Source of the DNA: an uncultured archaeon
GTDB lineage: Archaea; Asgardarchaeota; Thorarchaeia; Thorarchaeales; Thorarchaeaceae
Assembly (NCBI GenBank): GCA_964354495.1
Contig: CAYHAA010000030.1
Coordinates: 1-13,323 of the forward strand
Reading direction: 5' to 3'
DNA length: 13,323 nt
In this document: piece after piece, positions 1-13,323 of the stretch
Numbering within the stretch: the stretch's first letter is position 1
Layout: every line of letters begins with the position of its first letter
The notes under the pieces: model-generated
What the model was told of the DNA's origin: nothing
What the model saw: only the letters and a program-made list of their open reading frames with translations
Database searches by the model: none
Made by a program: the position numbers and the translations under genes

Positions 1-179
1 GTCGAGGCAACCTGATGATTGCACCGCGTTCCCCGTCGAAGGCCCTTACCTCTCTTGCATTCCCGAAGGACTGCAAGACCAAGCTGCTTCTACCTCTATG
101 AAGTAGAAAACAGAGGAGGTGAGTGATGGAAGGTGAGGAACTCTCATCCTCTTCCATCCGCAGCTTCCGCTACGGATAC
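1..179. repeat. Repeat copy R0 (left part cut by window edge; complete right module)
   Basis: 1-176 is nearly identical to 8639-8815 (gcaacctga.gattgcaccgcgttccccgtcgaaggccc...gctacgga). Confidence 0.95.
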
Positions 180-262
180 GGTCTATTTTTCCAGCAAGAG
201 GAGAAACTTTTAGATAATGTCCAGTCATAACCCTATCTTGCAGACAGCTTGGAGGAAGTAAG

Positions 263-1024
263 ATGAAGAAATGGTACGAGGCCCTGTTCGAGAACTACGC
301 TAGGAAGTACGACGAGGAGGTGTTCGTCAAAGGCACGCTGGGGGAATGCGACTTCATCGAGAAGGAGCTATCCCATGACAAGTCACTCCGCATTCTTGAC
401 GTGGGCTGCGGTACTGGAAGGCATGCAATAGAACTGGCCAGGAGAGGATACGATGTAACTGGCATCGATCTGTCAGCGGCCCAGCTTGCTAGGGCCATGC
501 AGAAAGCGGAGATGGCTGGTGTGGATGTGGATTTTCTGCGTCTTGATGCTAGAGAGCTGCCATTCCAAAATGAGTTCGACGCCGCCATCATGCTCTGCGA
601 GGGCGGCTTTCCACTGATGGAGACCGATGAGATGAACTATCAGATACTGGAGGGTGTGGCCAGGGCTCTTCGCAATCCTGGCAGGTTCATCTTCACCACC
701 CTGAACGGGCTGTTTCCACTTTATCACTCGGTTGAGGAGTTCATGGCAGAGGCCACTGAGGATGGGAAGGCCACGTACAGGTCCAATACATTCGACCTTA
801 TGACCTTCAGGGACCACAACATCACCACCATCATTGATGACGACGGTGAAGAGGTGGAACTTAGGAGCAACGAGAGGTACTATGTGCCCAGCGAGATAAC
901 ATGGCTGCTAAAGAGTCTCGGTTTCAAGGACATAGGCACTTTCGGTGCCAGGCTCGGCGACTTCTCCAGAGAGCATGAACTGACAACCGAGGACTTCGAG
1001 ATGTTGGTGGTCGCCTCATTCTGA
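263..1024 (+). CDS. Class I SAM-dependent methyltransferase
   Basis: 253 aa ORF; motif I ILDVGCGTGRH, motif II VTGIDLS, DARELPFQNEFDAAI; GGAGG SD at 251-255. Confidence 0.93.
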   Translation: MKKWYEALFENYARKYDEEVFVKGTLGECDFIEKELSHDKSLRILDVGCGTGRHAIELARRGYDVTGIDLSAAQLARAMQKAEMAGVDVDFLRLDARELPFQNEFDAAIMLCEGGFPLMETDEMNYQILEGVARALRNPGRFIFTTLNGLFPLYHSVEEFMAEATEDGKATYRSNTFDLMTFRDHNITTIIDDDGEEVELRSNERYYVPSEITWLLKSLGFKDIGTFGARLGDFSREHELTTEDFEMLVVASF

Positions 1025-1062
1025 AATGCAGTCCCCAAAGTGCAGACAGATAGTAAATTCAG

Positions 1063-1196
1063 AATCCACTAGGATGAGTAGATGGGTGAAAAATGAAAAG
1101 GGTGGCTCAACAGCGAACAGCACGAGCAAGTTCTCCACTTTTGCATCGGGCAACCTGACGATTGCGCCGCGCTCGCTATCAGTAGCACGCACCTCT
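1063..1196. repeat. Repeat copy R1 (left motif + core hairpin, diverged right part)
   Basis: aatccact-N16-tgaaaaatgaaaagggtggctcaacagcgaacagc...gcacgcacctct; alignable to R7 up to about 1196. Confidence 0.93.
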
Positions 1197-1264
1197 TCCT
1201 TTCAGATGATAGGTGATAGAATCGTTCTCTGCTCCAAGGCTGATGGACCATGCACAGCATCATT

Positions 1265-1672
1265 CTAGTAGGACTCAGCACTCAAACCTGGAACCCGTTG
1301 GAACTCTCGGATGTTATGAGTCACTAGCCGCGTTATCCCCTTGGAAAGGGCCGTACCAGCGATCATGACATCACGTGCACCAATAGGGTCACCGCTATTC
1401 ATCAAAAGAGAGATAACATTTGCGGATTCAATGGCCGCGTTTCTGTCAAAGGAGAGCACTTCCATCCGGGAGAGAAGTTGTTCAAGCTCAGAGGTCCTCT
1501 TCTTCCGTTTTGCCTTAGAACCTTCCGAGATTCGGAAGAGACCCGTGTATAGTTCAAAGGCATTAATCTCTGAAGTATACAGAGCGTGTTCTTCCAGGTC
1601 ATTCAGCCATGAAATTGCCGCGCTATCCTTTCTCAGGAGATCTACAAGGAGTGTGGTGTCTAGAAATATCAC
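1265..1672 (-). CDS. vapC: VapC PIN-domain toxin
   Basis: IFLDTT, SEINAFEL, DVMIAGTA, LVTHNIREF PIN motifs; 4-nt overlap with the upstream small ORF. Confidence 0.92.
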   Translation of the reverse strand: MIFLDTTLLVDLLRKDSAAISWLNDLEEHALYTSEINAFELYTGLFRISEGSKAKRKKRTSELEQLLSRMEVLSFDRNAAIESANVISLLMNSGDPIGARDVMIAGTALSKGITRLVTHNIREFQRVPGLSAESY

Positions 1673-1917
1673 TCAAGATCAACCTCCTCGGAATGCATTG
1701 TGGTGCTTATTGTTTCAAGTGTGTCCTCCAGTCTTGCCTCTTCGTCGGAGGTCAGATCACTCCAGCCATCTGAGGATTCAGCCCAGAGACGGAGGGAGAG
1801 TGATGTCTTGGACTTGCAAAGCCGGGTGATGGTTTCACCAAAGCTCTCACCAGGCAGTTGCATCTTCCTGAGGAGGTTGTAGACGTCCACTGTCACAGAA
1901 ATTGTCTTCGATGTCAC
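1669..1917 (-). CDS. vapB: Archaeal VapB-type antitoxin
   Basis: 82 aa; KTISVTVDVYNLL...GESFGETITRL resembles archaeal antitoxins of the DUF217 type; acidic C-terminus; directly upstream of vapC; GTG start. Confidence 0.8.
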   Translation of the reverse strand: MTSKTISVTVDVYNLLRKMQLPGESFGETITRLCKSKTSLSLRLWAESSDGWSDLTSDEEARLEDTLETISTTMHSEEVDLE

Positions 1918-1929
1918 AACATATCACAG

Positions 1930-1958
1930 TCTACATATGTAGATGTAGATATATAAAT
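1930..1958 (-). promoter_or_regulatory. Putative vapBC promoter: TATA box plus palindromic operator
   Basis: Minus-strand TTTATATA at 1957-1950; perfect 14-bp palindrome TCTACATATGTAGA at 1930-1943 between the TATA box and the start codon. Confidence 0.65.
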
Positions 1959-1984
1959 CCCTGCATAGATTGCTAGCGAGTAGT

Positions 1985-2189
1985 TGAAAATCGGAGAGAG
2001 TGGCCCAATAGCCACAGTTAGGGCAAGTTCCCTGTTTGCCCGACCCCGTCGAAGGCCCGTACCTCTCTCACAACCCGAGAGCTGTGAGCCAAGCTGCTTC
2101 TACCTCTATGAGATAGAAAACATAGGAGGTGACTGATGGAAGACGAGGTAATCTCATCCTCTTCCATCTGCAGCCACCACTACGGATAC
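1985..2189. repeat. Repeat copy R2 (short-core variant with complete right module)
   Basis: tgaaaatcggagagagtggcccaatagccacagttagggcaagttccctgtttgcccgaccccgtcgaaggcccgtacc...ctacggatac; 2044-2189 aligns with R0/R7. Confidence 0.92.
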
Positions 2190-2221
2190 CTTTCAGTTCG
2201 ATAGAAGGTAAATTCAGCGAC

Positions 2222-2276
2222 TTTATATGTATACCTGATATATAATGATATATCAGGTAATATGCCTGAAATCAGG
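2222..2276 (+). promoter_or_regulatory. Putative TA promoter/operator
   Basis: TTTATAT at 2222-2228; perfect 12-bp inverted repeat TACCTGATATAT-aatg-ATATATCAGGTA at 2232-2259; second CCTGA-aa-TCAGG at 2265-2276. Confidence 0.7.
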
Positions 2277-2285
2277 TGATTCACA

Positions 2286-2540
2286 ATGAGTCTGACTACT
2301 GAGGGTCAAATCGGAAAGAAACATACAATCTATCTTCCGAAAGCAGTTGTTGAAGAAGCAAGTCTCGAAGTGGGAATGAAGGTCTTGATAACTGTAGAGG
2401 GAAATAGGATTATCATTGAGCCAGTTCCAGATCCTGTTGCTCTCGCAATCCATGGGGAAAAGTTTGCATCAATGACGCTAGAGGAAATAGAGGTCATCAG
2501 CCTTGAAGAACAGTCAAAGCACACGGAAAATTCTTCTTGA
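2286..2540 (+). CDS. AbrB/MazE/SpoVT-family antitoxin
   Basis: GQIGKKHTIYLPKAVVEEASLEVGMKVLITVEGNRIIIEP is a typical AbrB-fold pattern; overlaps the downstream PIN gene. Confidence 0.88.
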   Translation: MSLTTEGQIGKKHTIYLPKAVVEEASLEVGMKVLITVEGNRIIIEPVPDPVALAIHGEKFASMTLEEIEVISLEEQSKHTENSS

Positions 2541-2955
2541 TACTTCTTTCCTTCTACCAACTCTTGGGATTGAAGTAGAGAGAGAAGTGGTGCAGACTCT
2601 TTCAAAGATTAACCACGAACAGACTCAACTGTTCTACTCGGACTGGAGTCTACTTGAGAGTAGCTGGGTAGTACTACGACTGATCAGACAGAAGAGGTAT
2701 GAAGAACCAGTCTATCGAAGAGGCCTTCTGAGCATAACCAAGACCCATGTCTATGATGCCGTTGCGATGAGCCCGGACGATTACCTGACCGCCATTAGAT
2801 TCTTTCAGAAGGGGCATCCAGACATGATTGACAATCTGTTGTATGCTGCTGCTCTTAGAGAGGGGTGTCATTTTCTCACATTTGATGGGGAACTCTCACG
2901 CTTCATCTCGAAAAATGACATCGAGAATGTTATACTAACTCCGAAGAACATCTGA
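2503..2955 (+). CDS. vapC: PIN-domain (VapC-like) toxin
   Basis: ILLDTSFLLP, SLLES, DNLLYAAA, FLTFDGEL; TTG start, exact start uncertain. Confidence 0.85.
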   Translation: MKNSQSTRKILLDTSFLLPTLGIEVEREVVQTLSKINHEQTQLFYSDWSLLESSWVVLRLIRQKRYEEPVYRRGLLSITKTHVYDAVAMSPDDYLTAIRFFQKGHPDMIDNLLYAAALREGCHFLTFDGELSRFISKNDIENVILTPKNI

Positions 2956-2968
2956 GCAGATTCAGCTA

Positions 2969-3078
2969 GGCCACTCTTGATAAGAGAATGAGAGGGTGGC
3001 TCAACAACGAGCAGCAAGAGCAAGTTCCCTGACTTGGCGTCGGGGCAACCCGTGTTTTGTACCGCGTCCTCCACTGAT
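2969..3078. repeat. Repeat copy R3 (diverged core, shortened left motif, no right module)
   Basis: ggccact...aatgagagggtggctcaacaacgagcagcaagagcaagttccc...gtaccgcgtcc aligns with the R6/R7 core. Confidence 0.9.
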
Positions 3079-3165
3079 TCTGTTCCATATGAATAAAACA
3101 CATAGGCACTTTTTTATGCCATGTTCAAATGTTGGTAATGAAAACAGAAGGACTGAATTAGCATC

Positions 3166-4437
3166 ATGCATAGCCAAGGAGTAGATATCTTTGGTAATGA
3201 ATCAGGAATTGCAGAGCAATCAAGACATGTTGTGTTGTTAGGTGCGTTAACTTTCCTAACTATATCGGCAGCCGCGATGCTTCATGTGAATCAGCCAGAG
3301 TTCATCTTAGACCGCTTTATTGGCATCACAGAACTTGAGTACACATTTTTTGACAGCACTTTGTACATTTCGTACATTGTCGGTGGATTGTTGACAGGAG
3401 CATTATCTGATCGACTGGGAATACGTAAGCCATTCGTGATTGTAGGAACATTCGGATCCGCGCTTTTCTATTGGCTGATGACAATCACCTTGGATTATCC
3501 ATTACTTCTCATGTACAGGTTCATACAGGGTTCCTTCACGGTCATGGTGTGGCAGGTGTTTATGACCATCGTACTTGATATTTCTTGGCCACATAATCGT
3601 GGAAAGAACATAGGCATCTTCTCGACATTTCTTGCCTTGGCAATGGGAGCAGGACCAGTACTAGGAGGAATAATCGCGGCTGCTGGTGTGTTTATGCCCT
3701 ACTACACTGCGACCGTGTTGAACCTCATCGTACTGGGAATAGCAGTTCTTGCTCTCAGAGAACCATTAGTGACCAAAAAACGTCCAGACTTTGTACATAG
3801 TCTAACAATTGTGACACGGTTGCCAAAGCTAATAATACCCGGAGTTTTCAATCTCATCGACAGACTCCATATTGGCTTTATATTGACTGCTTTACCATTG
3901 TTTCTCTCTTTGGTTCTAGGCTTATCACAGGCGTTAAGAGGAGTAGCATTAGGTATCTTTGCACTGCCTTTTATCTTGCTGCAATATCCTATGGGAAAGA
4001 TGTCGGATAGGTATGGGAGGTATCCTCAGCTGATATCAGGCAGTGTCGGGTTTGGAGTTGTGTTATCATTCTTTGGTTATTTTGGCGGTTATGGATTTTC
4101 AGCTGTCCTCATCATGCTTGCAGTGATGGGATTACTCAATGGCGTGACTTCGCCTCCTTCACTAGCATTGGTCGGTGATGTCGCAAAGACAGAAGATACA
4201 GCAATGGCTACAGGTTTCTTTAGTTTTATGGGAAACATAGGTATCGCAATTGGCCCGTTACTATTCGGATATCTGATTTTCACAACAGATTTCATAATTG
4301 CATTTCTAGCTGTCGGACTATTAGAACTGTTGACACTATTCTTGAATATAGTTCTAATCAAGGCCGTTTTTCATGAGAAACTCCTACCTTCTAGTGGACA
4401 CAGGTCGATTACTGTTGAGGACCTCGAGATCTCTTAA
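3166..4437 (+). CDS. Major facilitator superfamily transporter
   Basis: 423 aa with about 12 hydrophobic segments; MFS motif A twice (GALSDRLGIRK, GKMSDRYGRYP). Confidence 0.93.
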   Translation: MHSQGVDIFGNESGIAEQSRHVVLLGALTFLTISAAAMLHVNQPEFILDRFIGITELEYTFFDSTLYISYIVGGLLTGALSDRLGIRKPFVIVGTFGSALFYWLMTITLDYPLLLMYRFIQGSFTVMVWQVFMTIVLDISWPHNRGKNIGIFSTFLALAMGAGPVLGGIIAAAGVFMPYYTATVLNLIVLGIAVLALREPLVTKKRPDFVHSLTIVTRLPKLIIPGVFNLIDRLHIGFILTALPLFLSLVLGLSQALRGVALGIFALPFILLQYPMGKMSDRYGRYPQLISGSVGFGVVLSFFGYFGGYGFSAVLIMLAVMGLLNGVTSPPSLALVGDVAKTEDTAMATGFFSFMGNIGIAIGPLLFGYLIFTTDFIIAFLAVGLLELLTLFLNIVLIKAVFHEKLLPSSGHRSITVEDLEIS

Positions 4438-4634
4438 ATTGCTTTTATCTGTTACATAAGTAATTGCTATTTCGGAAAGATCAGGAGTTTGAAGCCATTT
4501 CTGGCTACTACTAATGTTCTCTTGGTAATTATCTCACCACGGTATTGTTACTATAATAAGAATGGATCGAAGATTGTTATCTGACTTGCAAAGATTGGAG
4601 AATCGAATTGTGGAATCATTTGTAGTATGATTTA

Positions 4635-4704
4635 TGAGAAATGAGATCGTGGCTCGACAATGTGAGGCTAGGGAAAGGTCACTGATGACCCGACCCCGTC
4701 AGCC
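4635..4704. repeat. Repeat copy R4 (minimal, most diverged short-core copy)
   Basis: tgagaaatgagatcgtggctcgac...tagggaaaggtcactgatgacccgaccccgtcagcc; shares aaatgaga, gtggctc, taggg and cccgaccccgtc with R2 and the other copies. Confidence 0.75.
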
Positions 4705-4729
4705 TATATCCCTGTCCATCCAAGGGAGT

Positions 4730-5011
4730 CTATTCCAGCCACTTGTAACCTTTGCTTCTATGGATTATTTCAGTGACTTGGACATCATGACCTATTACGA
4801 AGCAGATTGCTCTGTAATCACCAATACGCAATCGGAAGAGAGGCGGTTCATCATGAGTGATGAGTTTCTTGATGTCGGCCCCAGAACGTCTTCGAAAAGG
4901 ATTTTCTTCCAATTCTTGTAGACTAGATTTGATTCGACTCTTCTGCTTGAAGTCCAACAGGCCCAATTGAGCCACTGCAGTCTTGGACAAGAAGACCCTA
5001 TACTTGGTCAA
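4730..5011 (-). CDS. relE: RelE/ParE-family toxin
   Basis: YRVFLSKTA...LQELEENPF...IKKL...FRLRIGDYRAI...HRSKGY; likely TTG start at 5011 overlapping the antitoxin stop (the ORF-track start at 5083 lies inside the antitoxin). Confidence 0.9.
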   Translation of the reverse strand: MTKYRVFLSKTAVAQLGLLDFKQKSRIKSSLQELEENPFRRRSGADIKKLITHDEPPLFRLRIGDYRAICFVIGHDVQVTEIIHRSKGYKWLE

Positions 5012-5195
5012 GGGGAACGAACTCCTCTTCTTCGAGAATTCGTCTCTGTCTTCTGGCAAATTCAATCTGCTCTGCCATCTCAAGAAGGCGGCGGATTAGC
5101 TCATCATAGGTCTCTCCCTTCTGACCGTATCTCTTCAATAGGTCCCGGGTTTCCTTTGATAAGGGAATTGTAGTCGTTTCGCGCACATCTATCAC
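4998..5195 (-). CDS. Small archaeal antitoxin (RelB-like position)
   Basis: 65 aa; TTIPLSKETRDLLKRYGQKGETYDELIRRLL is a ribbon-helix-helix-like archaeal antitoxin pattern; directly upstream of relE. Confidence 0.82.
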   Translation of the reverse strand: MIDVRETTTIPLSKETRDLLKRYGQKGETYDELIRRLLEMAEQIEFARRQRRILEEEEFVPLDQV

Positions 5196-5263
5196 GACTT
5201 ATAGTGTTGATAGTTACTTATGACTTCATAGATTTGATAGTGAAAAATCGAGCACCAATGGAA

Positions 5264-5409
5264 AATCCACTCATTTGTGAAAACGGGTAAAAATGAGAAG
5301 GCGGCTCAACAGCCGCAGCAAGAGCAAGTATCTGCCGTGCTTCGGGCAACCTGAACGATTGGACCGCGTTCCCCGTCGAAGGCCCGTACTTCACTCACTA
5401 TCCCGAAGG
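5264..5409. repeat. Repeat copy R5 (core + right module truncated at the cgaa loop)
   Basis: aatccact-N16-taaaaatgagaaggcggctcaac...ccgcgttccccgtcgaaggcccgtacttcactcactatcccgaagg. Confidence 0.92.
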
Positions 5410-5422
5410 TTTTTTCTAAGCT

Positions 5423-5659
5423 TCACAATAAGCGTAAGAATTCCTCTTTCGATAGTCCACTCTGTTTGATGATTGAGAGAAGTGTCCCCTTTGGAATCGG
5501 GTTCCTATGAGGGATAATAATAAGATATGGTCGATTATCGGTATCATATCTGACAAGGGCGATGTGGCTACCTTTTCCTCTCACAGGAGCATATTGAAAA
5601 CCAGCCTTGAGTAACCTCCGGATTAGCTTCGTACTGCTAATCTGAGGCAGTTTACTCAT
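5423..5659 (-). CDS. hicA: HicA-family toxin
   Basis: KLPQISSTKLIRRLLKAGF...RGKGSHIAL...IIIPHRNPIPKGTLLSIIKQSGLSKEEF; start set at MSKLP (5659; 5665 also possible). Confidence 0.92.
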   Translation of the reverse strand: MSKLPQISSTKLIRRLLKAGFQYAPVRGKGSHIALVRYDTDNRPYLIIIPHRNPIPKGTLLSIIKQSGLSKEEFLRLL

Positions 5660-5704
5660 TGACATCACTGTGTGCCAGCTATAACGACCATGCAAATCTA
5701 GGAC

Positions 5705-5941
5705 TTAGACATTGATCTCAATCGTACGTGTGGACTTCTCAGAGGCAGTCATCATCGGGAGATACTCATCTATGACCCCAAGCTCACGAGCATTGACAAG
5801 CCAGAGCTCTATTGCCTCTTTGAGATTGGCCAGAGCCTCATCTGCGGTATCACCTGCTGATGATACATCAATCTCGGGACATTTGGATACATAGGTCCCA
5901 TCTTCTTCCCATACAACAGCAGTGAATTTTACTTTCATCAT
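5705..5941 (-). CDS. hicB: HicB-family antitoxin (short, UPF0150-like)
   Basis: FTAVVWEEDGTYVSKCPEIDVSSAGDTADEALANLKEAIELWL; upstream of hicA. Confidence 0.9.
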   Translation of the reverse strand: MMKVKFTAVVWEEDGTYVSKCPEIDVSSAGDTADEALANLKEAIELWLVNARELGVIDEYLPMMTASEKSTRTIEINV

Positions 5942-6107
5942 CGTATACTACCATCCGAAGGTTATGAATTAAACTCTTTCATCAATGAGAATTCGGATTA
6001 ACTCTCTACGTTGTAGTTAGAAACGGTCAATATTAACTACTACCAACCAATGTATGATTCATGTTAAAACGAAGCAGGAGAGGTCTTCCATTAAGATAGT
6101 TAATAGA

Positions 6108-6260
6108 GAGTCCACTGAATTAGAAAAGCAAGTGAAAAATGAGAGGGTGGCTCAACAGCGAAGAGCACGAGCAAGTTCCCCACTTTGGCATCGGGCAACC
6201 TGACGATTGCACCGCGTTCAACGTCGTCCAAGGTCAGTGCTTCGCTTACATTCCGAAGAC
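6108..6260. repeat. Repeat copy R6
   Basis: gagtccact-N16-tgaaaaatgagagggtggctcaac...gcaccgcgtt; diverged but alignable through aaggtcagtgcttcgcttacattccgaag. Confidence 0.92.
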
Positions 6261-6510
6261 GGTTGCTGAAAATGCAGTCCTTTTTGTTGGAACACATCCA
6301 CACTCCCAAAGGCGTTACCATTCTTAGAGTGAAGGAAAGGATCTTTGGTATTATTGTTAGGTTTCTATCAAATTCCGAAGTGATTCAGACCTTTGCGTTA
6401 TGGGCTAGATAGAGCTTGACTTCAGGTGCGGAAAAAGTGGTTGTATTCTGATTGAAGATTGTAGTATCTATGGTCGATTGGACAAAATATGATTACTTCA
6501 TCCACAAATA

Positions 6511-6557
6511 ACATGTTTTATCCATGTCTTTATATCGTGTTGAATGGATATTCATGT
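6511..6557 (+). promoter_or_regulatory. Putative TA promoter flanked by an inverted repeat
   Basis: TTTATAT at 6529-6535 lies between ACATGttttATCCAT (6511-6525) and ATGGATattCATGT (6544-6557); 38 nt upstream of ATG 6573. Confidence 0.6.
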
Positions 6558-6572
6558 AGGGTGTTCATCTTG

Positions 6573-6812
6573 ATGGTTCGAGTTCGAATGGATGGCCAAC
6601 GACGCATCAGAATCCCAAGGAAGGCCGGAGTGGAAGGAGATACATTCCTCCTCCTCGCTCTTGGATCATATCACATTCTCTTTCCTGTTCCCTCTGAGAA
6701 ACCAGAACTGGATATCGAGGGACCAATAACAGAGCTTCTTTCACAGGCAGAAGTGGAGATTATTAGAGATGTGACCGAGAGATGGAGGAGGAAAGACCAA
6801 GATGCTGATTGA
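6573..6812 (+). CDS. AbrB-like antitoxin
   Basis: MVRVRMDGQRRIRIPRKAGVEGDTFLL resembles an AbrB N-terminus; start reassigned from 6489 to 6573 because the TATA box lies at 6529; overlaps the PIN gene. Confidence 0.72.
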   Translation: MVRVRMDGQRRIRIPRKAGVEGDTFLLLALGSYHILFPVPSEKPELDIEGPITELLSQAEVEIIRDVTERWRRKDQDAD

Positions 6813-7218
6813 GAATGACATGATCTTGGCATTCTATAAGAGAAACGACCACCTAAAACCACTTGCCACTCGTCTATTCTCAAGAATTGAACAGGGTGAT
6901 TTCGGTACAGTCGTTATACCTAGTGTCTTTTCGATTGAGCTCTACTATATCTTAAGATGCCTCACTGGTGTGACTCCAGTTCGAGATGTTATAAGCCACC
7001 TCATTACATTTCCCAATTTATCAATAATTCCTTCCACTATTGATCATCAATTGGCAGCCTTGTTCCTCCTAGAGAATTACCAACTAGAATCTATCTTTGA
7101 TGCAGTCTATGCCGCAGTATCACTCAGTGATGACAACCCAGACCACACGATCATCTCTACAGATCATATCTATGATAGAATTGAGGGCTTGACAAGGCTC
7201 GATCCCACCAGTATTTAG
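6802..7218 (+). CDS. vapC: PIN-domain (VapC-like) toxin
   Basis: MLIEND, SVFSIEL, IFDAVYAAV, IISTDHIYDRIEGL. Confidence 0.83.
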   Translation: MLIENDMILAFYKRNDHLKPLATRLFSRIEQGDFGTVVIPSVFSIELYYILRCLTGVTPVRDVISHLITFPNLSIIPSTIDHQLAALFLLENYQLESIFDAVYAAVSLSDDNPDHTIISTDHIYDRIEGLTRLDPTSI

Positions 7219-7227
7219 TGAACTGCA

Positions 7228-8466
7228 ATGAGGAATAAATCTCGCATGATGAACTTGATTACCTTCAGAGTATCCAGAGTCAGTTGCAGGCTCAGCGTTT
7301 CGCTGATACTGATCCTACTTGGATTTGCATACTCAGGTCTGCCTATGGCCTCTACCTATGTAGCAAAGATAGAGCCTGCACAGACTCAGACAACAACATG
7401 GATATCCCTTGAAACCGACTACCCAGAGGCAAAATTCTATGATGTTGAGTTCATCAATTCCTCTCACGGATGGGTCGTTGGATTATTGTACTCCAACACA
7501 TCTTCGGGCGGAATCATCCTTCACACAGAAACCAGTGGAGATACATGGGACACCCAACTTACTGATGATGCGCAAATATTCTATCAATTAGAAGTGGTGA
7601 ATGAACAAACAGCATGGGTGACCGGACTCGGTCGTCTCTACTTCACGAATGATAGTGGAGAGTCATGGTACACCTCTCTTGTGGGGAATAATCGCCTGTC
7701 TGGAATGAGCATGGTTGAGTTCCTCAATGAAACCCATGGATGGACTGCCACGATGCAGATACTATTCAGAACGACGGATGGTGGGCAGACATGGCAGAAT
7801 GTAACTGGTTGGACGTTCGATGACCATCCTTCGGACATGCAGTTCTTGACCGACTATGAAGTATGGGCGATTGGTTCTGACGGTATCTACCATAGTGACG
7901 ATGGCGCGGAAACTTGGGAGATGGTCTTTGATAAGGGGGGCTGGAGCCTATCGTTTCCAAACGAAGACGAAGGGTGGGCTGCGAGTCATAAATACTTCTT
8001 CCATATGAAGCAAGACCATACGTGGGAAGAGATTGTCATCCCCGGAAGACTTCCTTCATTTCGACTCTTATCTCCATATTGTTCAGATATACAGTTCATT
8101 GATGACGAACACGGATGGATTGTAAGCAGTGAGATTCCTATAATGCACACGCCGAACGGTGGAAGCAACTGGTATGAACAATCAGTTCCCGCGGATAGAG
8201 GCGGTCTCATGATGGCTGTCTGTTTCATTGATGAGTTGCACGGGTGGGTAGTGGGAAGCGATGGCTGTATTCTTAGAACCTCTACAGGAAACAATCTTGA
8301 CGCACTTCTCCTCTCCGGTCAAGAGGATCTTCTATTGATCGTTTTTGGAGCCACTGGAGTCGCAATCGTGCTGCCCGTCGGTCTGATTATTCTTCGTTGG
8401 AGAAAGCGGAGAATTCACGCCACTCAAACAGTTGGAGATTTGAAATTGGTTCCTGAGCTACCATGA
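7228..8466 (+). CDS. Membrane-anchored BNR/Asp-box (Ycf48-like) beta-propeller protein, paralogue 1
   Basis: N-terminal hydrophobic signal; repeated HGWVVG and TxDGGxTW units; C-terminal TM helix followed by RWRKRR. Confidence 0.85.
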   Translation: MRNKSRMMNLITFRVSRVSCRLSVSLILILLGFAYSGLPMASTYVAKIEPAQTQTTTWISLETDYPEAKFYDVEFINSSHGWVVGLLYSNTSSGGIILHTETSGDTWDTQLTDDAQIFYQLEVVNEQTAWVTGLGRLYFTNDSGESWYTSLVGNNRLSGMSMVEFLNETHGWTATMQILFRTTDGGQTWQNVTGWTFDDHPSDMQFLTDYEVWAIGSDGIYHSDDGAETWEMVFDKGGWSLSFPNEDEGWAASHKYFFHMKQDHTWEEIVIPGRLPSFRLLSPYCSDIQFIDDEHGWIVSSEIPIMHTPNGGSNWYEQSVPADRGGLMMAVCFIDELHGWVVGSDGCILRTSTGNNLDALLLSGQEDLLLIVFGATGVAIVLPVGLIILRWRKRRIHATQTVGDLKLVPELP

Positions 8467-8556
8467 CATGATTGTCTGTCTTGGTGTGATACTTGACATA
8501 GTAGCAAACTTGTTAGGGAGAACAGACAAGAAGCTACCACTCAGAAGATAATTAGA

Positions 8557-8815
8557 AAGTCCACTCATAATAATAGATGAATGAAAAATGAAAAGGGTGG
8601 CTCAACAGCGAACAGCAAGAGCAAGTTCTCCACTTTGGCATCGGGCAACCTGACGATTGCACCGCGTTCCCCGTCGAAGGCCCGTACCTCTCTTGCATTC
8701 CCGAAGGACTGCAAGACCAAGCTGCTTCTACCTCTATGAGATAGAAAACAGAGGAGGTGAGTGATGGAAGACGAGATGACTCTCGTCTTCTTCCATCCGC
8801 AGCTTCTGCTACGGA
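8557..8815. repeat. Repeat copy R7, the only complete copy in the window (about 260 nt)
   Basis: aagtccact-N16-tgaaaaatg + core + all right-module hairpins ending at gctacgga. Confidence 0.96.
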
Positions 8816-8908
8816 ATGAGCTCTTCAATTACAAATGCTGATGGGCTTGACTTGATCGCTCCAGAGTTCACAAAGTTCTCGTTCCAAAACAGCATCTTCA
8901 CTTTATTA

Positions 8909-9328
8909 TTAGTACACAAGTTGACAAAGACCTGCAAAGTCAGAATCAAATGTGGCCAGATATCCAACATCATTAGCATCAATGAATGATAGAATGCAAC
9001 AATCGGTGAAGCTCAGGGGTCTCTCAGGCCACCTGGCAAAGCGTTCCCATTTCTCCCACGCGAGGTCTAGGACTCTGGGTGTTATGTATTCAAACTTGAT
9101 GAACTCGGGAGTACCACGAACAAGCTCGTAAGCCTTTGTCACCGCACTCTTTTGGCGGGTATGTATCCAGAGGGTCGTGAGCACTTCGTCTAGGACATAG
9201 TCAATCGTGAGCCTCATTCCATACTCTTGGTCCTTAAGCTTGGTAAGAAGCTCTCTCGCTTTTGGATGATTTCGGTCTCGCGTGTTCAGCAATGCAATGA
9301 CGACATTACTATCTATGAGGACAGTCAT
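8909..9328 (-). CDS. vapC: PIN-domain (VapC-like) toxin
   Basis: VLIDSNVVIA, DYVLDEV, SFTDCCIL, LATFDSDF; 4-nt overlap with the upstream ORF. Confidence 0.9.
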   Translation of the reverse strand: MTVLIDSNVVIALLNTRDRNHPKARELLTKLKDQEYGMRLTIDYVLDEVLTTLWIHTRQKSAVTKAYELVRGTPEFIKFEYITPRVLDLAWEKWERFARWPERPLSFTDCCILSFIDANDVGYLATFDSDFAGLCQLVY

Positions 9329-9618
9329 GTAGAGTCACCGCCGTATACCACATCATCCACTCTCGATGAGAGTTCTTCACTCCCAGGTCCCAAGTCCTCT
9401 GCCAAGGAAAGGACTTTCTGAATGATATCATCACCCAGAGGATAGTCCATCAATCGCACCTCATTAACTATGAGATCATAGTTCTCAAGACCGATTCTGA
9501 ACACGATCTCTAGTATCTCCTTCTTTGTCAGACGCTTTCGTGTCTCCAGATATAGACGTGCCTGCAACTCTTCTAGGTCATCTTTAAGATCGAATTTCAC
9601 CGTGGACACTGATAACAC
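9325..9618 (-). CDS. Putative antitoxin (VapB position)
   Basis: 97 aa, acidic C-terminus, coupled to the PIN gene; minus-strand TTTATAT at 9650-9644 about 26 nt upstream of the GTG. Confidence 0.7.
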   Translation of the reverse strand: MLSVSTVKFDLKDDLEELQARLYLETRKRLTKKEILEIVFRIGLENYDLIVNEVRLMDYPLGDDIIQKVLSLAEDLGPGSEELSSRVDDVVYGGDST

Positions 9619-9687
9619 CCAGTAACTGAGTCACCAGGACACCATATAAACTTGTAGAGTTCTCCACTTCCAGTGGTGAAAGGGAAA

Positions 9688-9875
9688 GAGTCCACTGAGT
9701 CTGATTGATGATTGAAAAATGAAAAAGGGTGGCTCAACAGTGAACAGCAAGAGCAAGTTCCCCACTTTGGCATCGGGCAACCTGACGATTGCACCGCGTT
9801 CCCCGTCGAAGGCCCGTACCTCTCTCACTGTCCGAAGACCGTGAGCCAAGCTGCTTCTACATCTATGAGATAGAA
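9688..9875. repeat. Repeat copy R8 (right module truncated after the second hairpin)
   Basis: gagtccact-N16-tgaaaaatg...ccgtacctctctcactgtccgaagaccgtgagccaagctgcttctacatctatgagatagaa. Confidence 0.95.
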
Positions 9876-10119
9876 GACACTATTCAGTGGGTGCTTAAAT
9901 TGAACGTACCAAGAATGAGGAGAATGAGCATTGCTTCAGCTCAACATGCCAACACGAACCCTAGCTTGTTCGGGAACCAATTGGCTTAAAACAAGGAGAG
10001 TCTATCACAAAACACACTGACTTCGTGATTAGGTATCGACTGTCTTGAATTGTATCACCAAAAGGAAACGCTGCGCATGCCTGTTCACGTAGTCAGATAT
10101 TCGTGGTTAGGAGTCGAAA

Positions 10120-11967
10120 ATGGTGAATTCAAAGAGAGCAATATTAAGCATATTATTAATTCTGATAATGATAACACCAGTTGTTGGTGTCGGCAATCTC
10201 AATCCTTCGCATGAACCAGCACTTTTGATTTTGAAAGCAGAGTCTGGGGATGCCAGTATCGATGTCGGAGTCAAAAATCTAAGACTTGGTCTGCGTGACA
10301 CAGTATCTGATGTGAGAGTAAGATATCTAGAAAGGCTGGACACACTTGACGCAAATGGGGAGTACCTCATTATTATAGGTCATGGATTTCCAGAGGGGCT
10401 TGAAATCAATGGAAGGACAATACCTTGGGAGGAACTCTATGCAGCCATAAGAAGAGCTGGTCCGGAAAGGGCTTTTGTTCTAGCATGTTACTCACCGGTT
10501 GATGAGGAGATCATTGGGTTCAATGCTCCAATTGATGCAAAAGCTGGGGCGATTCTAATATCTTGGCTGATATGTAGCTCTTTGAGACCAGAAAAGCAAT
10601 CCAGTTTTCCTATCGAAGATGCAATAACAGCTCAAAGGGACATGAGAAATCCTTTGAATCGATACGTGTACTTTGTACATGGATACTTTGGGTCTAATGC
10701 AGACTTTGACACAATGGTTGATAGATTCGGAGACGAGAATATTTTAACAAGCTATTCTGAAATAAAATATTTCGGCTACTGTGAGCACTATGGTTTGGAA
10801 TTGCCACAGGATGTCTTGCTAATTGATGCAATGCACCAAATCACAACGATTTCTGCTTATGCCAATGATTTTGCCGACGAATTATACGATCTGCCATCTG
10901 GTTCACATGTATCTATAGTAGCTCACAGTATGGGTGGGATAATCACGAGGGAAATGCTTGGGCTTCACAGAGCTGATCTTGACGCTGCAGGAATCTGGAT
11001 TGACAAGGTCATCACACTTGGTACACCAAATCTAGGAACATGGCTTGCCAATCCGATACAGCCATGAGCGGTAATCCTGACACTGATTGGTGGAATCCTT
11101 AATTTCGGTCAATTTTGGCCCAGCCTAGTCTTTTACTCGTTGAATCCACTGTCTCTCCTAATGTACAATCTAAATGCAGACCCCATAAGTTACTCCTATG
11201 GTATAGAGTGGTATACAGCCGCGGGATATGACCCCGTAATGAGCATCCTTACCTATCCAATACACTTCGATCTAAGCGATCCATTGGTTGCGGTCGGGAA
11301 AGCACACCTCTCGTTCCTTGGCGTGGAAGAGTCAGTGACGTATGACGGAATTGATCATATAGGACTCATTCAGAACTCCGATCCAGCTGGAACATTCTCT
11401 GATGTCTGCAGCTGGTTATGTTCAGGCGACGATTACGATGGAGACGGACTGACTGATGATGCTGAACTCTATACCTGGGGAACCAATCCTTATGACACTG
11501 ATAGCGACAATGATGGTCTCTCGGATTACGAGGAGGTCGTTGATTATAAGACCAATCCAAACAACCCAAACACGGATGGTGATGCAATTAATGATGGCAC
11601 TGAGATCGCTTGGAACTATGACCCTCTGGACAGTTCAAGTCCAATTCAGGCATCTTCACTGATCCAGAGTATGCAAATATACAGTGGTTCGATAATGTCA
11701 GTGACGGCAAGTAGCTTGACAGGGGTCACCAAGGTACTGTTCTATGCACAATACAAGGACTATTATGGCACATGGACATCCTATCAACTCATAGGCACGG
11801 ACTCCTCATCGCCATTCGTCAAATCATGGGTTATTCCTGCAGGCTATGTTGCGATTAGGGTCAAGGTAGAAGCATATAACTCAGGTAATGTCTATTTAGG
11901 TTGTGATACTGCGTACATGACCCTGGGTGGCGGCGGTGGTGGCGGCGGCGAGCCTGTACCTTATTGA
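10120..11967 (+). pseudogene. Secreted alpha/beta-hydrolase (lipase-like) with Ca-binding DxDxDG repeats, interrupted by one in-frame TGA at 11065-11067
   Basis: The 10120-11067 and 11140-11967 ORFs share a frame with only the TGA between them. VHGYFG, VAHSMGG and TLGTPNLG precede the stop; candidate catalytic D (DPLV) and H (DHIGL), the DYDGDG/DSDNDG/NTDGD repeats (about 11428-11631) and a Gly8 tail follow it. Confidence 0.75.
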
Positions 11968-11989
11968 TGGCGTATTCAAAACCAATCCT

Positions 11990-13201
11990 ATGAGGAAAAC
12001 ATCGCACATGATGAACATGATTCCCCTCCGAACATTCAGACCCGGCTACAGCCTAAGTGTTGTGCTCCTGCTGACCCTACTTGGATTTGCATACGCAGGT
12101 CTGCCTATGGCTTCTACCTATGCAGCAAACATAGAGCCTGCACAGACTCAGACAACAACATGGATATCCCTTGAGAACGATTACCCAGAGGCTATATTTC
12201 GTGATGTCGAGTTCATCAATTCCTCTCACGGATGGGTAGTGGCAGGTGGTATTATCCTTCACACAGAAGACGGTGGAGACTCCTGGGAAACCCAGCTCGC
12301 TGATGATTCACAGGCATTCCGACAGCTAGAAGTAGTGAATGAACGAACAGTATGGGTGACTGGGCTCGGTTGTCTCTACTTCACGAACGATAGTGGAGAG
12401 TCATGGCATACCTCAGTTGCTTACAGTAGTCTGTCCACTATGAGTATGGTGGAGTTCTTCAATGAAACCCATGGATGGACTGCTACAATGCAGATGCTGT
12501 TCAAAACGACTGACGGTGGGCAAACCTGGCAGAATGTGACTGGTTGGACGTTCGACGATCATCCTAAGGACATGCAGTTCTTGAATGAGTATGAAGTATG
12601 GGCGATTGGCTATGACGGTGTCTACCATAGCGATGATGGCGCGGAGACCTGGGAGAAGGTCTTTGATAAGGGAGGCTGGAGCCTATCCTTTCCGAACCAA
12701 GACGAAGGGTGGGCCATCAGTGATGGCTACCTCTTCCACATGGAGCAAGACCATACGTGGGAGGAGCTGGCTGTTCCCGGAAGACTTCCTTCATTTCGGC
12801 TCACCCCTCCATATTCTTCAGATATACAGTTCATTGACGACCAGCACGGATGGATAGTAGGCGGTGAGATCCCTGTAATGCACACGCCAAATGGCGGAAG
12901 CAACTGGTATCAACAATCAGTTCCTGCTGACATAGGGGAACGTATGATGGCTGTCTGTTTCGTTGATGAGGTACATGGGTGGGTAGTGGGATACGATGGC
13001 TGTATTCTCAGAACCTCTACAGGAGGCAATCTTGATGCACTTCTCCTCTCCGGTCAAGAGGACCTTCTACTGATCGCTCTTGGAACCGCTGGAATAGCAA
13101 TCGCACTCACTATTGGTATCCTTGGTCTTCGTTGGAGAAGACGAAGGATTCGCGCGACTCACACAGGTATTGATTTAAAATCGACTCCGGAGATACTCTA
13201 G
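11990..13201 (+). CDS. Membrane-anchored BNR/Asp-box (Ycf48-like) protein, paralogue 2
   Basis: Colinear with 7228-8466; start reassigned to ATG 11990 (MRKTSHMMNMI vs MRNKSRMMNLI). Confidence 0.87.
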   Translation: MRKTSHMMNMIPLRTFRPGYSLSVVLLLTLLGFAYAGLPMASTYAANIEPAQTQTTTWISLENDYPEAIFRDVEFINSSHGWVVAGGIILHTEDGGDSWETQLADDSQAFRQLEVVNERTVWVTGLGCLYFTNDSGESWHTSVAYSSLSTMSMVEFFNETHGWTATMQMLFKTTDGGQTWQNVTGWTFDDHPKDMQFLNEYEVWAIGYDGVYHSDDGAETWEKVFDKGGWSLSFPNQDEGWAISDGYLFHMEQDHTWEELAVPGRLPSFRLTPPYSSDIQFIDDQHGWIVGGEIPVMHTPNGGSNWYQQSVPADIGERMMAVCFVDEVHGWVVGYDGCILRTSTGGNLDALLLSGQEDLLLIALGTAGIAIALTIGILGLRWRRRRIRATHTGIDLKSTPEIL

Positions 13202-13291
13202 CATTTTCATCGATTATGACGCGATGTTTGGCGAGGTACGAGATCTTTTGGAGAGAATCAAGAAAAGACTCCCTCTCAGATGACAAATAGA

Positions 13292-13323
13292 GAGTCCTCT
13301 AACAAGAATGGATGATTGAAAAA
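13292..13323. repeat. Start of repeat copy R9 (cut by window edge)
   Basis: gagtcctct-aacaagaatggatgat(16 nt)-tgaaaaa has the same motif and spacing as R1/R6/R7/R8. Confidence 0.75.

Follow-up and report, generated by a model that had tools for sequence, protein, structure and literature searches.

What kind of system gathers small, unrelated genes into a regular array in an archaeal genome, and what are the long, structured repeats that separate them? The question is raised by a contig of 13,323 nt (CAYHAA010000030.1, hereafter C30) of an uncultured archaeon of the family Thorarchaeaceae (assembly GCA_964354495.1). The contig was analyzed at its full length, and this whole stretch of DNA is referred to below as the window. 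The genome to which it belongs (G000) comprises 3.3 Mb in 51 contigs and is 97.7% complete; other G-numbers denote relatives from the same family, of which G030 and G042 belong to the genus of G000. An original prediction, made from the letters of the window alone, described an integron-like array of gene cassettes delimited by an unfamiliar repeat in an archaeal, probably Asgard, genome, and the host is indeed an Asgard archaeon. We find that the repeat is a duplicated 3′ end of the 16S rRNA gene with its trailer. Taken as a whole, the explanation that we favor, with somewhat better than even confidence, is that the window is the middle of a ~35-kb island of accessory genes, an accretion array that is integron-like but mechanistically different, and that its units recombine via the copies of the 16S tail.

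Identity of the Repeat

The window contains ten copies of a single repeat family in a single orientation, as found by a repeat search and an iterated nhmmer profile, with profile E-values ranging from 3e-4 for a diverged copy at position 4628 to 1e-85. The copies are 120–280 nt long, and they separate nine cargo blocks of approximately 0.5–3.4 kb, each with one to three genes on either strand; six of the nine blocks hold toxin-antitoxin (TA) pairs. The layout of a localized, TA-rich cassette array, as originally described, is thus confirmed. The statement that no repeat falls inside a gene also stands: open reading frames (ORFs) overlapping the repeats are short frames only, and they are disrupted by 1-nt indels between copies, hence the repeat is non-coding and lies inside no credible gene. 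A coding reading of the repeat itself was rejected on the same grounds, as every frame is broken in this way.

The repeat is the last ~65–95 nt of the genome's 16S rRNA gene together with a ~210-nt 3′ trailer. The last copy on contig C31 (also designated locus L002; positions 12766–13014) runs unbroken into a match to the archaeal small-subunit (SSU) rRNA on the minus strand (Rfam RF01959, model positions 1232–1478), and it is this contiguity with the 16S gene that establishes the identity of the repeat. Similarly, a complete 16S gene is followed directly by 11 copies in G030 and by eight copies in G042. The window by itself gave no Rfam family at E up to 1, because the 16S piece of the repeat is too short and too interrupted to score on its own. 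All copies are read on the minus strand, which is the rRNA sense; the plus strand of the window carries the complement of the 16S 3′ end.

In the rRNA sense, a full copy starts at most ~15 nt from a 30-nt insert in the decoding-region part of the 16S gene, continues through helix 45, a 31-nt hairpin insert, and the anti-Shine-Dalgarno (anti-SD) end of the 16S rRNA, and then enters the ~210-nt trailer, which contains several hairpins, a 28-nt core, and an oligo-T stretch. The full-length reference copy, R7 (8534–8820, minus strand), is 98% identical to the native 16S tail on C31. Within R7, the 16S piece including the 31-nt insert occupies positions 8760–8815, the complement of the anti-SD 8750–8759, the trailer hairpins 8590–8750, the conserved core 8596–8625, and the complement of the oligo-T terminator 8575–8595.

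The 3′ trailer and the processing stem of archaeal pre-16S rRNA belong to established rRNA biology, and the array repeat resembles them closely: its sequence is the trailer, its core is complementary to a segment of the leader, and it has an oligo-T end. What differs is the presence here of ~17 copies, of which 16 alternate with accessory genes and are separated from any rRNA gene. A 10–12-nt complement of the core was found ~140 nt upstream of the 16S gene in G030 and G042 only, which points, if weakly, to pairing with the leader; judging from these two genomes, the 28-nt core is probably the trailer strand of a leader–trailer processing helix. A comparison of the entire leader with the entire trailer by RNAduplex was uninterpretable at such length, and the short complementary block was used instead.

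Since the repeat is a 16S tail, its hairpins are structures of pre-rRNA processing and termination, not a dedicated recombination fold. The structured, modular look that had made the repeat seem unfamiliar is that of a pre-rRNA flank, and compensatory changes between copies can reflect different source trailers. This part of the original prediction is therefore replaced. Our confidence in the identity of the repeat, and in the mobility of the units considered below, is high.

Extent and Boundaries of the Array

An iterated nhmmer scan of the whole G000 genome, one of the checks proposed originally, confined the repeat family to three places, namely, the 3′ end of contig C17 (60098–68938, its last 9 kb), C30, and C31, always on one strand. 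A dispersed miniature inverted-repeat transposable element (MITE) is ruled out, as the copies occur in one array only and are without terminal inverted repeats. The window is the entire contig C30, and both contig ends lie inside repeats, so that the array continues on either side, as had been proposed. On one side, C17 and C30 share exactly 55 nt, the word length of the assembler, and this overlap falls within a repeat. On the other side, C30 ends and C31 begins inside repeats with no overlap, which suggests that the two are neighbors. Including this link, the whole array comprises ~17 copies and 16 units in ~35 kb; the island would then extend from the 3′ end of the 16S gene (C31, minus strand), its proximal end, to a gene of the metallo-β-lactamase fold (C17), its distal end. 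The unit nearest to the 16S gene, on C31, contains a restriction-modification pair of the MvaI/BcnI type, a 580-aa TnpB-like gene, and a 1,630-aa gene of no known family. In this restriction-modification pair (L002 3580–5699), the MvaI/BcnI-family endonuclease is convergent with the DNA methylase.

The two ends of the repeat behave differently. At the end far from the 16S gene the copies stop roughly together, ~50 nt beyond the oligo-T stretch, and some of them retain the last 12–45 codons of the gene that flanks the native trailer (e.g., window positions 13244–13290). At the 16S side the extent varies, with shorter copies devoid of the 16S-proximal part. The 21 "full" internal copies, from eight genomes, all begin at positions 296–312 of a query running from inside the 16S gene, i.e., at most 15 nt from a variable 30-nt insert that is present in 17 of the 27 native 16S genes, and no full internal copy extends deeper into the 16S gene despite the high conservation there. 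This fixed 16S-proximal start could be a founder boundary, an att-type crossover, or a cut site. Conservation of the 28-nt core was also considered as a sign of a recombination function; it is no evidence either way, since the profiles of internal and native copies are alike.

Exchange of Units Between Genomes

Matches to the repeat were observed in 61 of 85 genomes of the family, often in multiple clustered copies. Cassettes of the G000 array recur in G030, G060, G036, G007, and G042 at 68–95% nucleotide identity, across species and genera; for example, the ParE/DUF7557 cassette (window 4730–5233) is present in eight arrays of seven genomes. The orientation of shared cassettes relative to the repeats is constant, whereas their order differs between relatives, which bears on the earlier proposal to compare cassette order between strains. 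Thus, the 87-aa gene, LVIVD, ParE-GNAT, and methyltransferase cassettes follow each other in G000, and the order in G030 is LVIVD, another cassette, the 87-aa gene, ParE-GNAT, and a PIN pair. On a soil-metagenome contig of 5.4 kb, the MFS cassette of the window (~97% identity) precedes 2.9 kb of other DNA, after which comes the PIN pair found at 8909–9618 in the window. The cargo includes its own promoters and operators and genes on both strands.

The repeats themselves record the exchange. One G030 repeat (Rb) is chimeric, combining the left flank of the G000 repeat R3 with the right part of R4 and switching between them at the core; such a product is what recombination between two repeats would be expected to yield. 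Further, G000 and G030 agree at 94.5% identity over the ParE-GNAT unit and its full tail copy up to the motif GGATAC, beyond which the cargo differs. One switch point is therefore at the 28-nt core and the other at the 16S-proximal edge, and the full copies share the 15-nt start zone. Such a spread of breakpoints within the repeat is easier to reconcile with homologous recombination than with one fixed crossover site. The chimeric repeats bear out the suggestion that the repeats are the places where units recombine.

In the genus g10, a 2.5-kb insert flanked by two 219-nt tail copies is present in G024 and missing from G023. Both G024 copies carry the 31-nt insert and a trailer type foreign to G023, and for this reason the block looks as if it had been imported whole.

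Internal Copies as a Separate Lineage

Two inserts of 30–31 nt occur in the last 100 nt of the 16S gene (L002 12960–12990 and 13023–13052). The one adjacent to the anti-SD is found in 8/27 native 16S genes, and the other in 17/27. The former, 31 nt long and located immediately 5′ of the anti-SD, is carried by all internal copies with a 16S piece (~21 copies), including those of G030, G036, and G042, whose native 16S genes are without it. In a quick maximum-likelihood tree of the tails (~290 columns), one clade, with a Shimodaira–Hasegawa-like approximate likelihood ratio test (SH-aLRT) value of 96, unites 18 of 21 internal copies and is separate from the native tails of G030, G036, and G042. 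The same clade holds six of the eight insert-bearing native tails as well as the insert-less native tail of G078; of the two remaining insert-bearing natives, one lies outside the clade and one was not in the tree. In addition, two G000 copies, R4 and the copy at C31:2090, are of a shorter trailer type that is native to G042 and G033 and is not G000's own.

These relationships raise the prospect, which we regard as improbable though worth stating, that the tail copies are a lineage of "16S 3′ ends" that is carried by elements, propagates itself, bears the 31-nt hairpin insert as its mark, and relies on an undiscovered activity to cut or recombine the 16S gene at the insert site of the decoding region.

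Proposed Mechanism

A unit would consist of one tail copy and one to three cargo genes, mostly TA pairs with their own promoters, and units would be inserted, deleted, and reshuffled by recombination between tail copies. Two routes can be envisaged. By the first, a circle with one tail and its cargo, popped out of a donor array, would re-enter another by a single crossover; by the second, imported linear DNA with tail copies would replace or add units by double crossover. The first route has a laboratory counterpart in pop-in/pop-out (Campbell-type) integration by homologous recombination, which is used in archaeal genetics. There too a circle with one region of homology integrates by a single crossover, direct repeats flank the insert, and recombination between the repeats excises it; but pop-in/pop-out is a laboratory procedure, and we did not find a natural, family-wide cassette system built on it described.

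Host homologous recombination is the simplest agent of unit exchange. It agrees with the chimerism of the repeats, with breakpoints at several places, with the lack of a recombinase, and with homology carried by every relative. As the agent actually at work, it is a tentative choice to which we give slightly less than even weight.

Several points weigh against the favored explanation. Homologous recombination alone cannot make the first junction between a tail copy and new cargo, and it leaves the 15-nt start zone of the full copies in eight genomes unexplained. The conservation of the core in the internal copies mirrors that of the native trailers, with similar profiles. No circular intermediate was seen among the sequences examined, which were contigs of related strains only, from four sequencing runs; no run contained more than 19% of the sampled words, and no RNA run was among the matches listed. 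The genomes are metagenome-assembled (MAGs), and a recombinase may be located on an unbinned plasmid or virus. Finally, we infer the linkage of C30 with C31 for two contigs without overlap.

Search for a Recombinase

The original prediction proposed to look for a recombinase at the ends of the array. The ends proved to be the metallo-β-lactamase-fold gene and the 16S gene, and no dedicated recombinase was found in or adjoining the array. The whole G000 genome gave no tyrosine recombinase, including the XerA type and IntI (PF00589, TIGR02249, NF040815), with searches that produced matches in all 14 control genomes. Neither a Y1 HUH transposase nor a reverse transcriptase (RVT_1) was found in the whole genome. 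Serine recombinases are represented in G000 by two 201-aa genes only, on other contigs (C22 and C24), and there are 16 TnpB-like genes. Tyrosine recombinases were observed in 29 of 86 genomes of the family; among the matches listed, none shares a contig with a tail copy, and the array-rich genomes G030, G036, G053, G021, and G042 have no tyrosine recombinase. In viral contigs, the 16-nt core motif was found at 16 loci, where similarity never extended beyond ~30 nt around the seed; such a number is about that expected by chance for a 16-mer.

At seven places in G000, a TnpB-like gene (~550–730 aa in intact copies) stands head to head with a gene of ~1,600 aa that belongs to no known family. The pair in the unit nearest to the 16S gene is located on C31 (L002 5934–7676, minus strand, and 7857–12749, plus strand), and the others are at C3:~77123/79427–84244, C6:~13956/15564–20222, C17:~679/2257–6750, C27:~7606/9218–11719, C1:777–5591/~7658, and C7:25207–28092/~28236. 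In many genera of the family, orthologs of the C31 copy face the native 16S trailer in convergent orientation. The pair may constitute a mobile module, or else the TnpB-derived member may regulate the other gene as its target. As an engine of the array it was rejected, since beyond the adjacency on C31 it has no tie to the repeats. Search of the ESM Atlas with the 1,630-aa protein gave no usable match. Of the eight giant-gene paralogs checked, two have tRNA genes at a distance of 8 kb or less, and ARAGORN identified only 14 tRNA genes in the whole of G000. Aloposons, which are large tRNA-targeting elements with giant genes, have been reported (PMC8813620), and the 16S-tail arrangement is not described there.

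Alternative Explanations and Known Systems

The growth of islands by tandem accretion at the 3′ end of a target gene is exemplified by the accretion of cis-mobilizable elements (CIMEs) and integrative and conjugative elements (ICEs), and by composite staphylococcal cassette chromosome (SCC) islands at rlmH. A site-specific process of this kind is the first alternative to homologous recombination, and we judge it unlikely without setting it aside. Integrase-bearing elements would target one fixed position in the 16S gene, within helix 45, with the integrase since lost or supplied in trans from rare plasmids or viruses, and each element would bring a replacement 16S 3′ end, trailer, and terminator. 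Later insertions would push older units away, integrase modules would decay, and addictive TA remnants would stay, mobilizable in cis. The scheme explains both boundaries of the repeat, as the start at 296–312, shared by 21 copies from eight genomes, would be the crossover, and the distal end would be the end of what restores rRNA maturation. Clustering of the insert-bearing native tails (8/27) with the internal copies is likewise expected if the 16S 3′ end is replaced, and the tycheposon islands of Prochlorococcus show the same build-up, with partial copies of tRNA genes (10.1101/2020.12.28.424599).

The recombinase search does not favor such a scheme: no tyrosine recombinase is encoded in G000 or in the genomes with the largest arrays (G030, G036, G053, G021, and G042), those of the 29/86 genomes are never on a contig with a tail copy among the matches listed, the serine recombinases are two 201-aa ORFs on other contigs only, and the viral contigs show no further homology to the repeat. 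Moreover, the breakpoints are at the core and at the 16S-proximal edge rather than at one site. Site-specific accretion nevertheless keeps a minor share of the weight, because homologous recombination explains neither the first joining of cargo nor the fixed start.

The identity of the repeat suggests that the array has more in common with tandem accretion at a target gene's 3′ end than with an integron. As in tycheposon islands, the direct repeats are partial 3′ ends of the target gene, new units push older ones outward, and units without a recombinase lie between att-like repeats. The differences are that the target here is the 16S gene with its processing trailer, that the repeats reach 280 nt instead of tens of nt, that the units are only 0.5–3.4 kb, and that no integrase is found in G000 or in the most array-rich relatives.

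Much less credible is local duplication only, in which the rRNA flank and resident genes would have been duplicated in place by slippage or unequal crossing-over, with the units immobile. The single orientation and single locus of all copies would suit such a process, and so would the several G000 copies that are closest to G000's own trailer (83–98%), but the internal copies of G030, G036, and G042 carry the insert and group with a lineage that is absent from their own 16S genes, the same cassettes recur in several genera in different orders, and two G000 copies are of a foreign trailer type. The insert-bearing internal copies and the foreign trailers thus exclude duplication of the resident flank in place as the main process.

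We give still less credence to a true integron, or a cluster of attC sites lacking integron-integrases (CALIN), with the repeats as very divergent attC sites and IntI encoded elsewhere. The layout is indeed like that of sedentary chromosomal integrons, TA-rich, and integrons, mostly CALINs, have been reported in Asgard MAGs (PMC9668308); that survey concerns attC/IntI integrons, and the 16S-tail arrangement is not described in it. The core even contains GCTCAAC, which fits RYYYAAC. However, attC sites are imperfect palindromes of 55–141 nt with paired RYYYAAC and GTTRRRY boxes, and a crude scan found no attC-like site on either strand of the window and no GTTRRRY partner to GCTCAAC; there is no inverted R′′/R′ pair, and neither IntI (TIGR02249) nor any PF00589 protein was matched. 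Instead, the repeats, up to ~280 nt in length, match the 16S tail over their full extent and adjoin the 16S gene without a break, and the cargo is in both orientations with its own promoters. The original view that the repeats are not attC sites is thereby upheld.

In outcome the array is integron-like, a one-locus store of exchangeable small cassettes, without the IntI and attC sites that define an integron. Both systems have small cassettes at one locus, one repeat family, an abundance of TA pairs, variable order and content, and repeats that serve as the places of recombination. In contrast to an integron, the array has copies of the 16S 3′ end and trailer in place of attC hairpins and is anchored on the 16S gene instead of attI, its repeats vary in extent from 120 to 280 nt, and its cargo is not uniformly oriented. 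The cassette-shuffling system of the original prediction thus survives insofar as units are exchanged at the repeats, whereas its likeness to an integron gives way to accretion at a gene's 3′ end.

An RNA-mediated origin, with reverse-transcribed 3′ fragments of pre-rRNA joined to cargo, is barely conceivable: the constant terminator-side end, the variable 5′ truncation, and the start of full copies at the 3′ edge of the 30-nt insert agree with it, but the genome has no reverse transcriptase, the copies keep the 31-nt insert, and the cargo includes untranscribed promoter and operator DNA and genes on both strands.

Gene Content of the Window

All repeats in the window are on the minus strand, and the cargo genes were assigned by Pfam. 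The first repeat, R0 (1–179), supplies the 3′ part of a full-length 16S-tail copy, the 5′ part of which is located at C17:68806–68938, as established by the 55-nt contig overlap, nhmmer, and alignment with a G030 copy; it ends in CGGATAC, inside helix 45. It is followed by a SAM-dependent methyltransferase (263–1024, plus strand; Methyltransf_25, E 7e-21) and by R1 (1048–1208), which has the trailer part only. The next block encodes a VapC (PIN) toxin and a VapB antitoxin (1265–1917, minus strand), and the same cassette is found in G030 with 78% identity (blastn). R2 (1975–2200) has an internal deletion and the deepest reach into the 16S sequence (..GGATACCTT). A MazE-like antitoxin and a PIN toxin (2286–2955, plus strand), common to G060 and G007, precede R3 (2955–3077), which consists of the core and the proximal trailer.

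A transporter of the MFS family (3166–4437, plus strand; MFS_1, E 2.5e-46) separates R3 from R4 (4628–4767), the diverged copy of the other trailer type, which is nearest to the native trailers of G042 and G033. The ParE block (4730–5233, minus strand) contains the ParE toxin (4730–5083), a small antitoxin of the DUF7557 family (4998–5195), and a promoter/operator. Between R5 (5257–5415) and R6 (6085–6264) lie a HicA toxin and a HicB-like antitoxin (5423–5941, minus strand), shared with G030 (83%) and G060. The block 6489–8466, on the plus strand, combines a 107-aa protein and a PIN protein (6489–7218) with a BNR/YCF48-like repeat protein that has a C-terminal transmembrane anchor (7228–8466).

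Beyond the reference copy R7 lie a PIN toxin and its 97-aa partner (8909–9618, minus strand), a cassette that G036, G007, and G060 also carry, oriented alike with respect to the repeats. R8 (9685–9880), comprising the trailer only, is followed by the block 10120–13201 with three genes on the plus strand, namely, a DUF676-type serine esterase (10120–11067), a bacterial TSP3-repeat protein (11140–11967), and a second BNR paralog (11927–13201). The two BNR/YCF48-like paralogs, which belong to different units, are ~81–85% identical at the nucleotide level, and both have C-terminal membrane anchors; their G030 ortholog forms the unit directly adjoining the G030 16S gene. A remnant comprising the final ~12 codons of the 1,630-aa gene next to the native 16S trailer (13244–13290, minus strand) leads into R9 (13291–13323), of which only the start is present before the contig end.

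Other Repeat Clusters in the Genome

A second array of like logic is located at C32:9248–13290, on a contig that joins the 5′ end of C17 with a 41-nt overlap. Three direct repeats of ~90 nt, corresponding to the 3′ terminus of the 23S rRNA and its trailer, separate two small modules there. Further local clusters of direct repeats were observed at C3:84818–95527, C7:111372–121891, and C10:2015–32579, with sequences unrelated to the 16S tail; the C3 cluster begins ~570 nt past one of the giant-gene paralogs.

Implications

Full-text literature searches found no published description of cassette arrays bounded by 16S tails, and tools based on attC sites or integrases miss arrays of this type. Little is known of how genes are exchanged among Asgard archaea, of which all but a few strains are uncultured. 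A cassette platform that is poor in recombinases, spans a whole family, and is anchored on the cell's most conserved gene would offer accessory and defense genes a simple way across the borders of species and genera, since the necessary homology is already present in every recipient. The array also links cassette traffic to the unusual short inserts in the 16S genes of Thorarchaeota. If the tail copies do form an element-borne lineage, which we consider improbable, cassette insertion would give the single 16S rRNA gene of the host a new 3′ end; this would explain the element-type insert in 8 of 27 native genes, and rRNA micro-inserts and cassette traffic would be one process in Asgard archaea.

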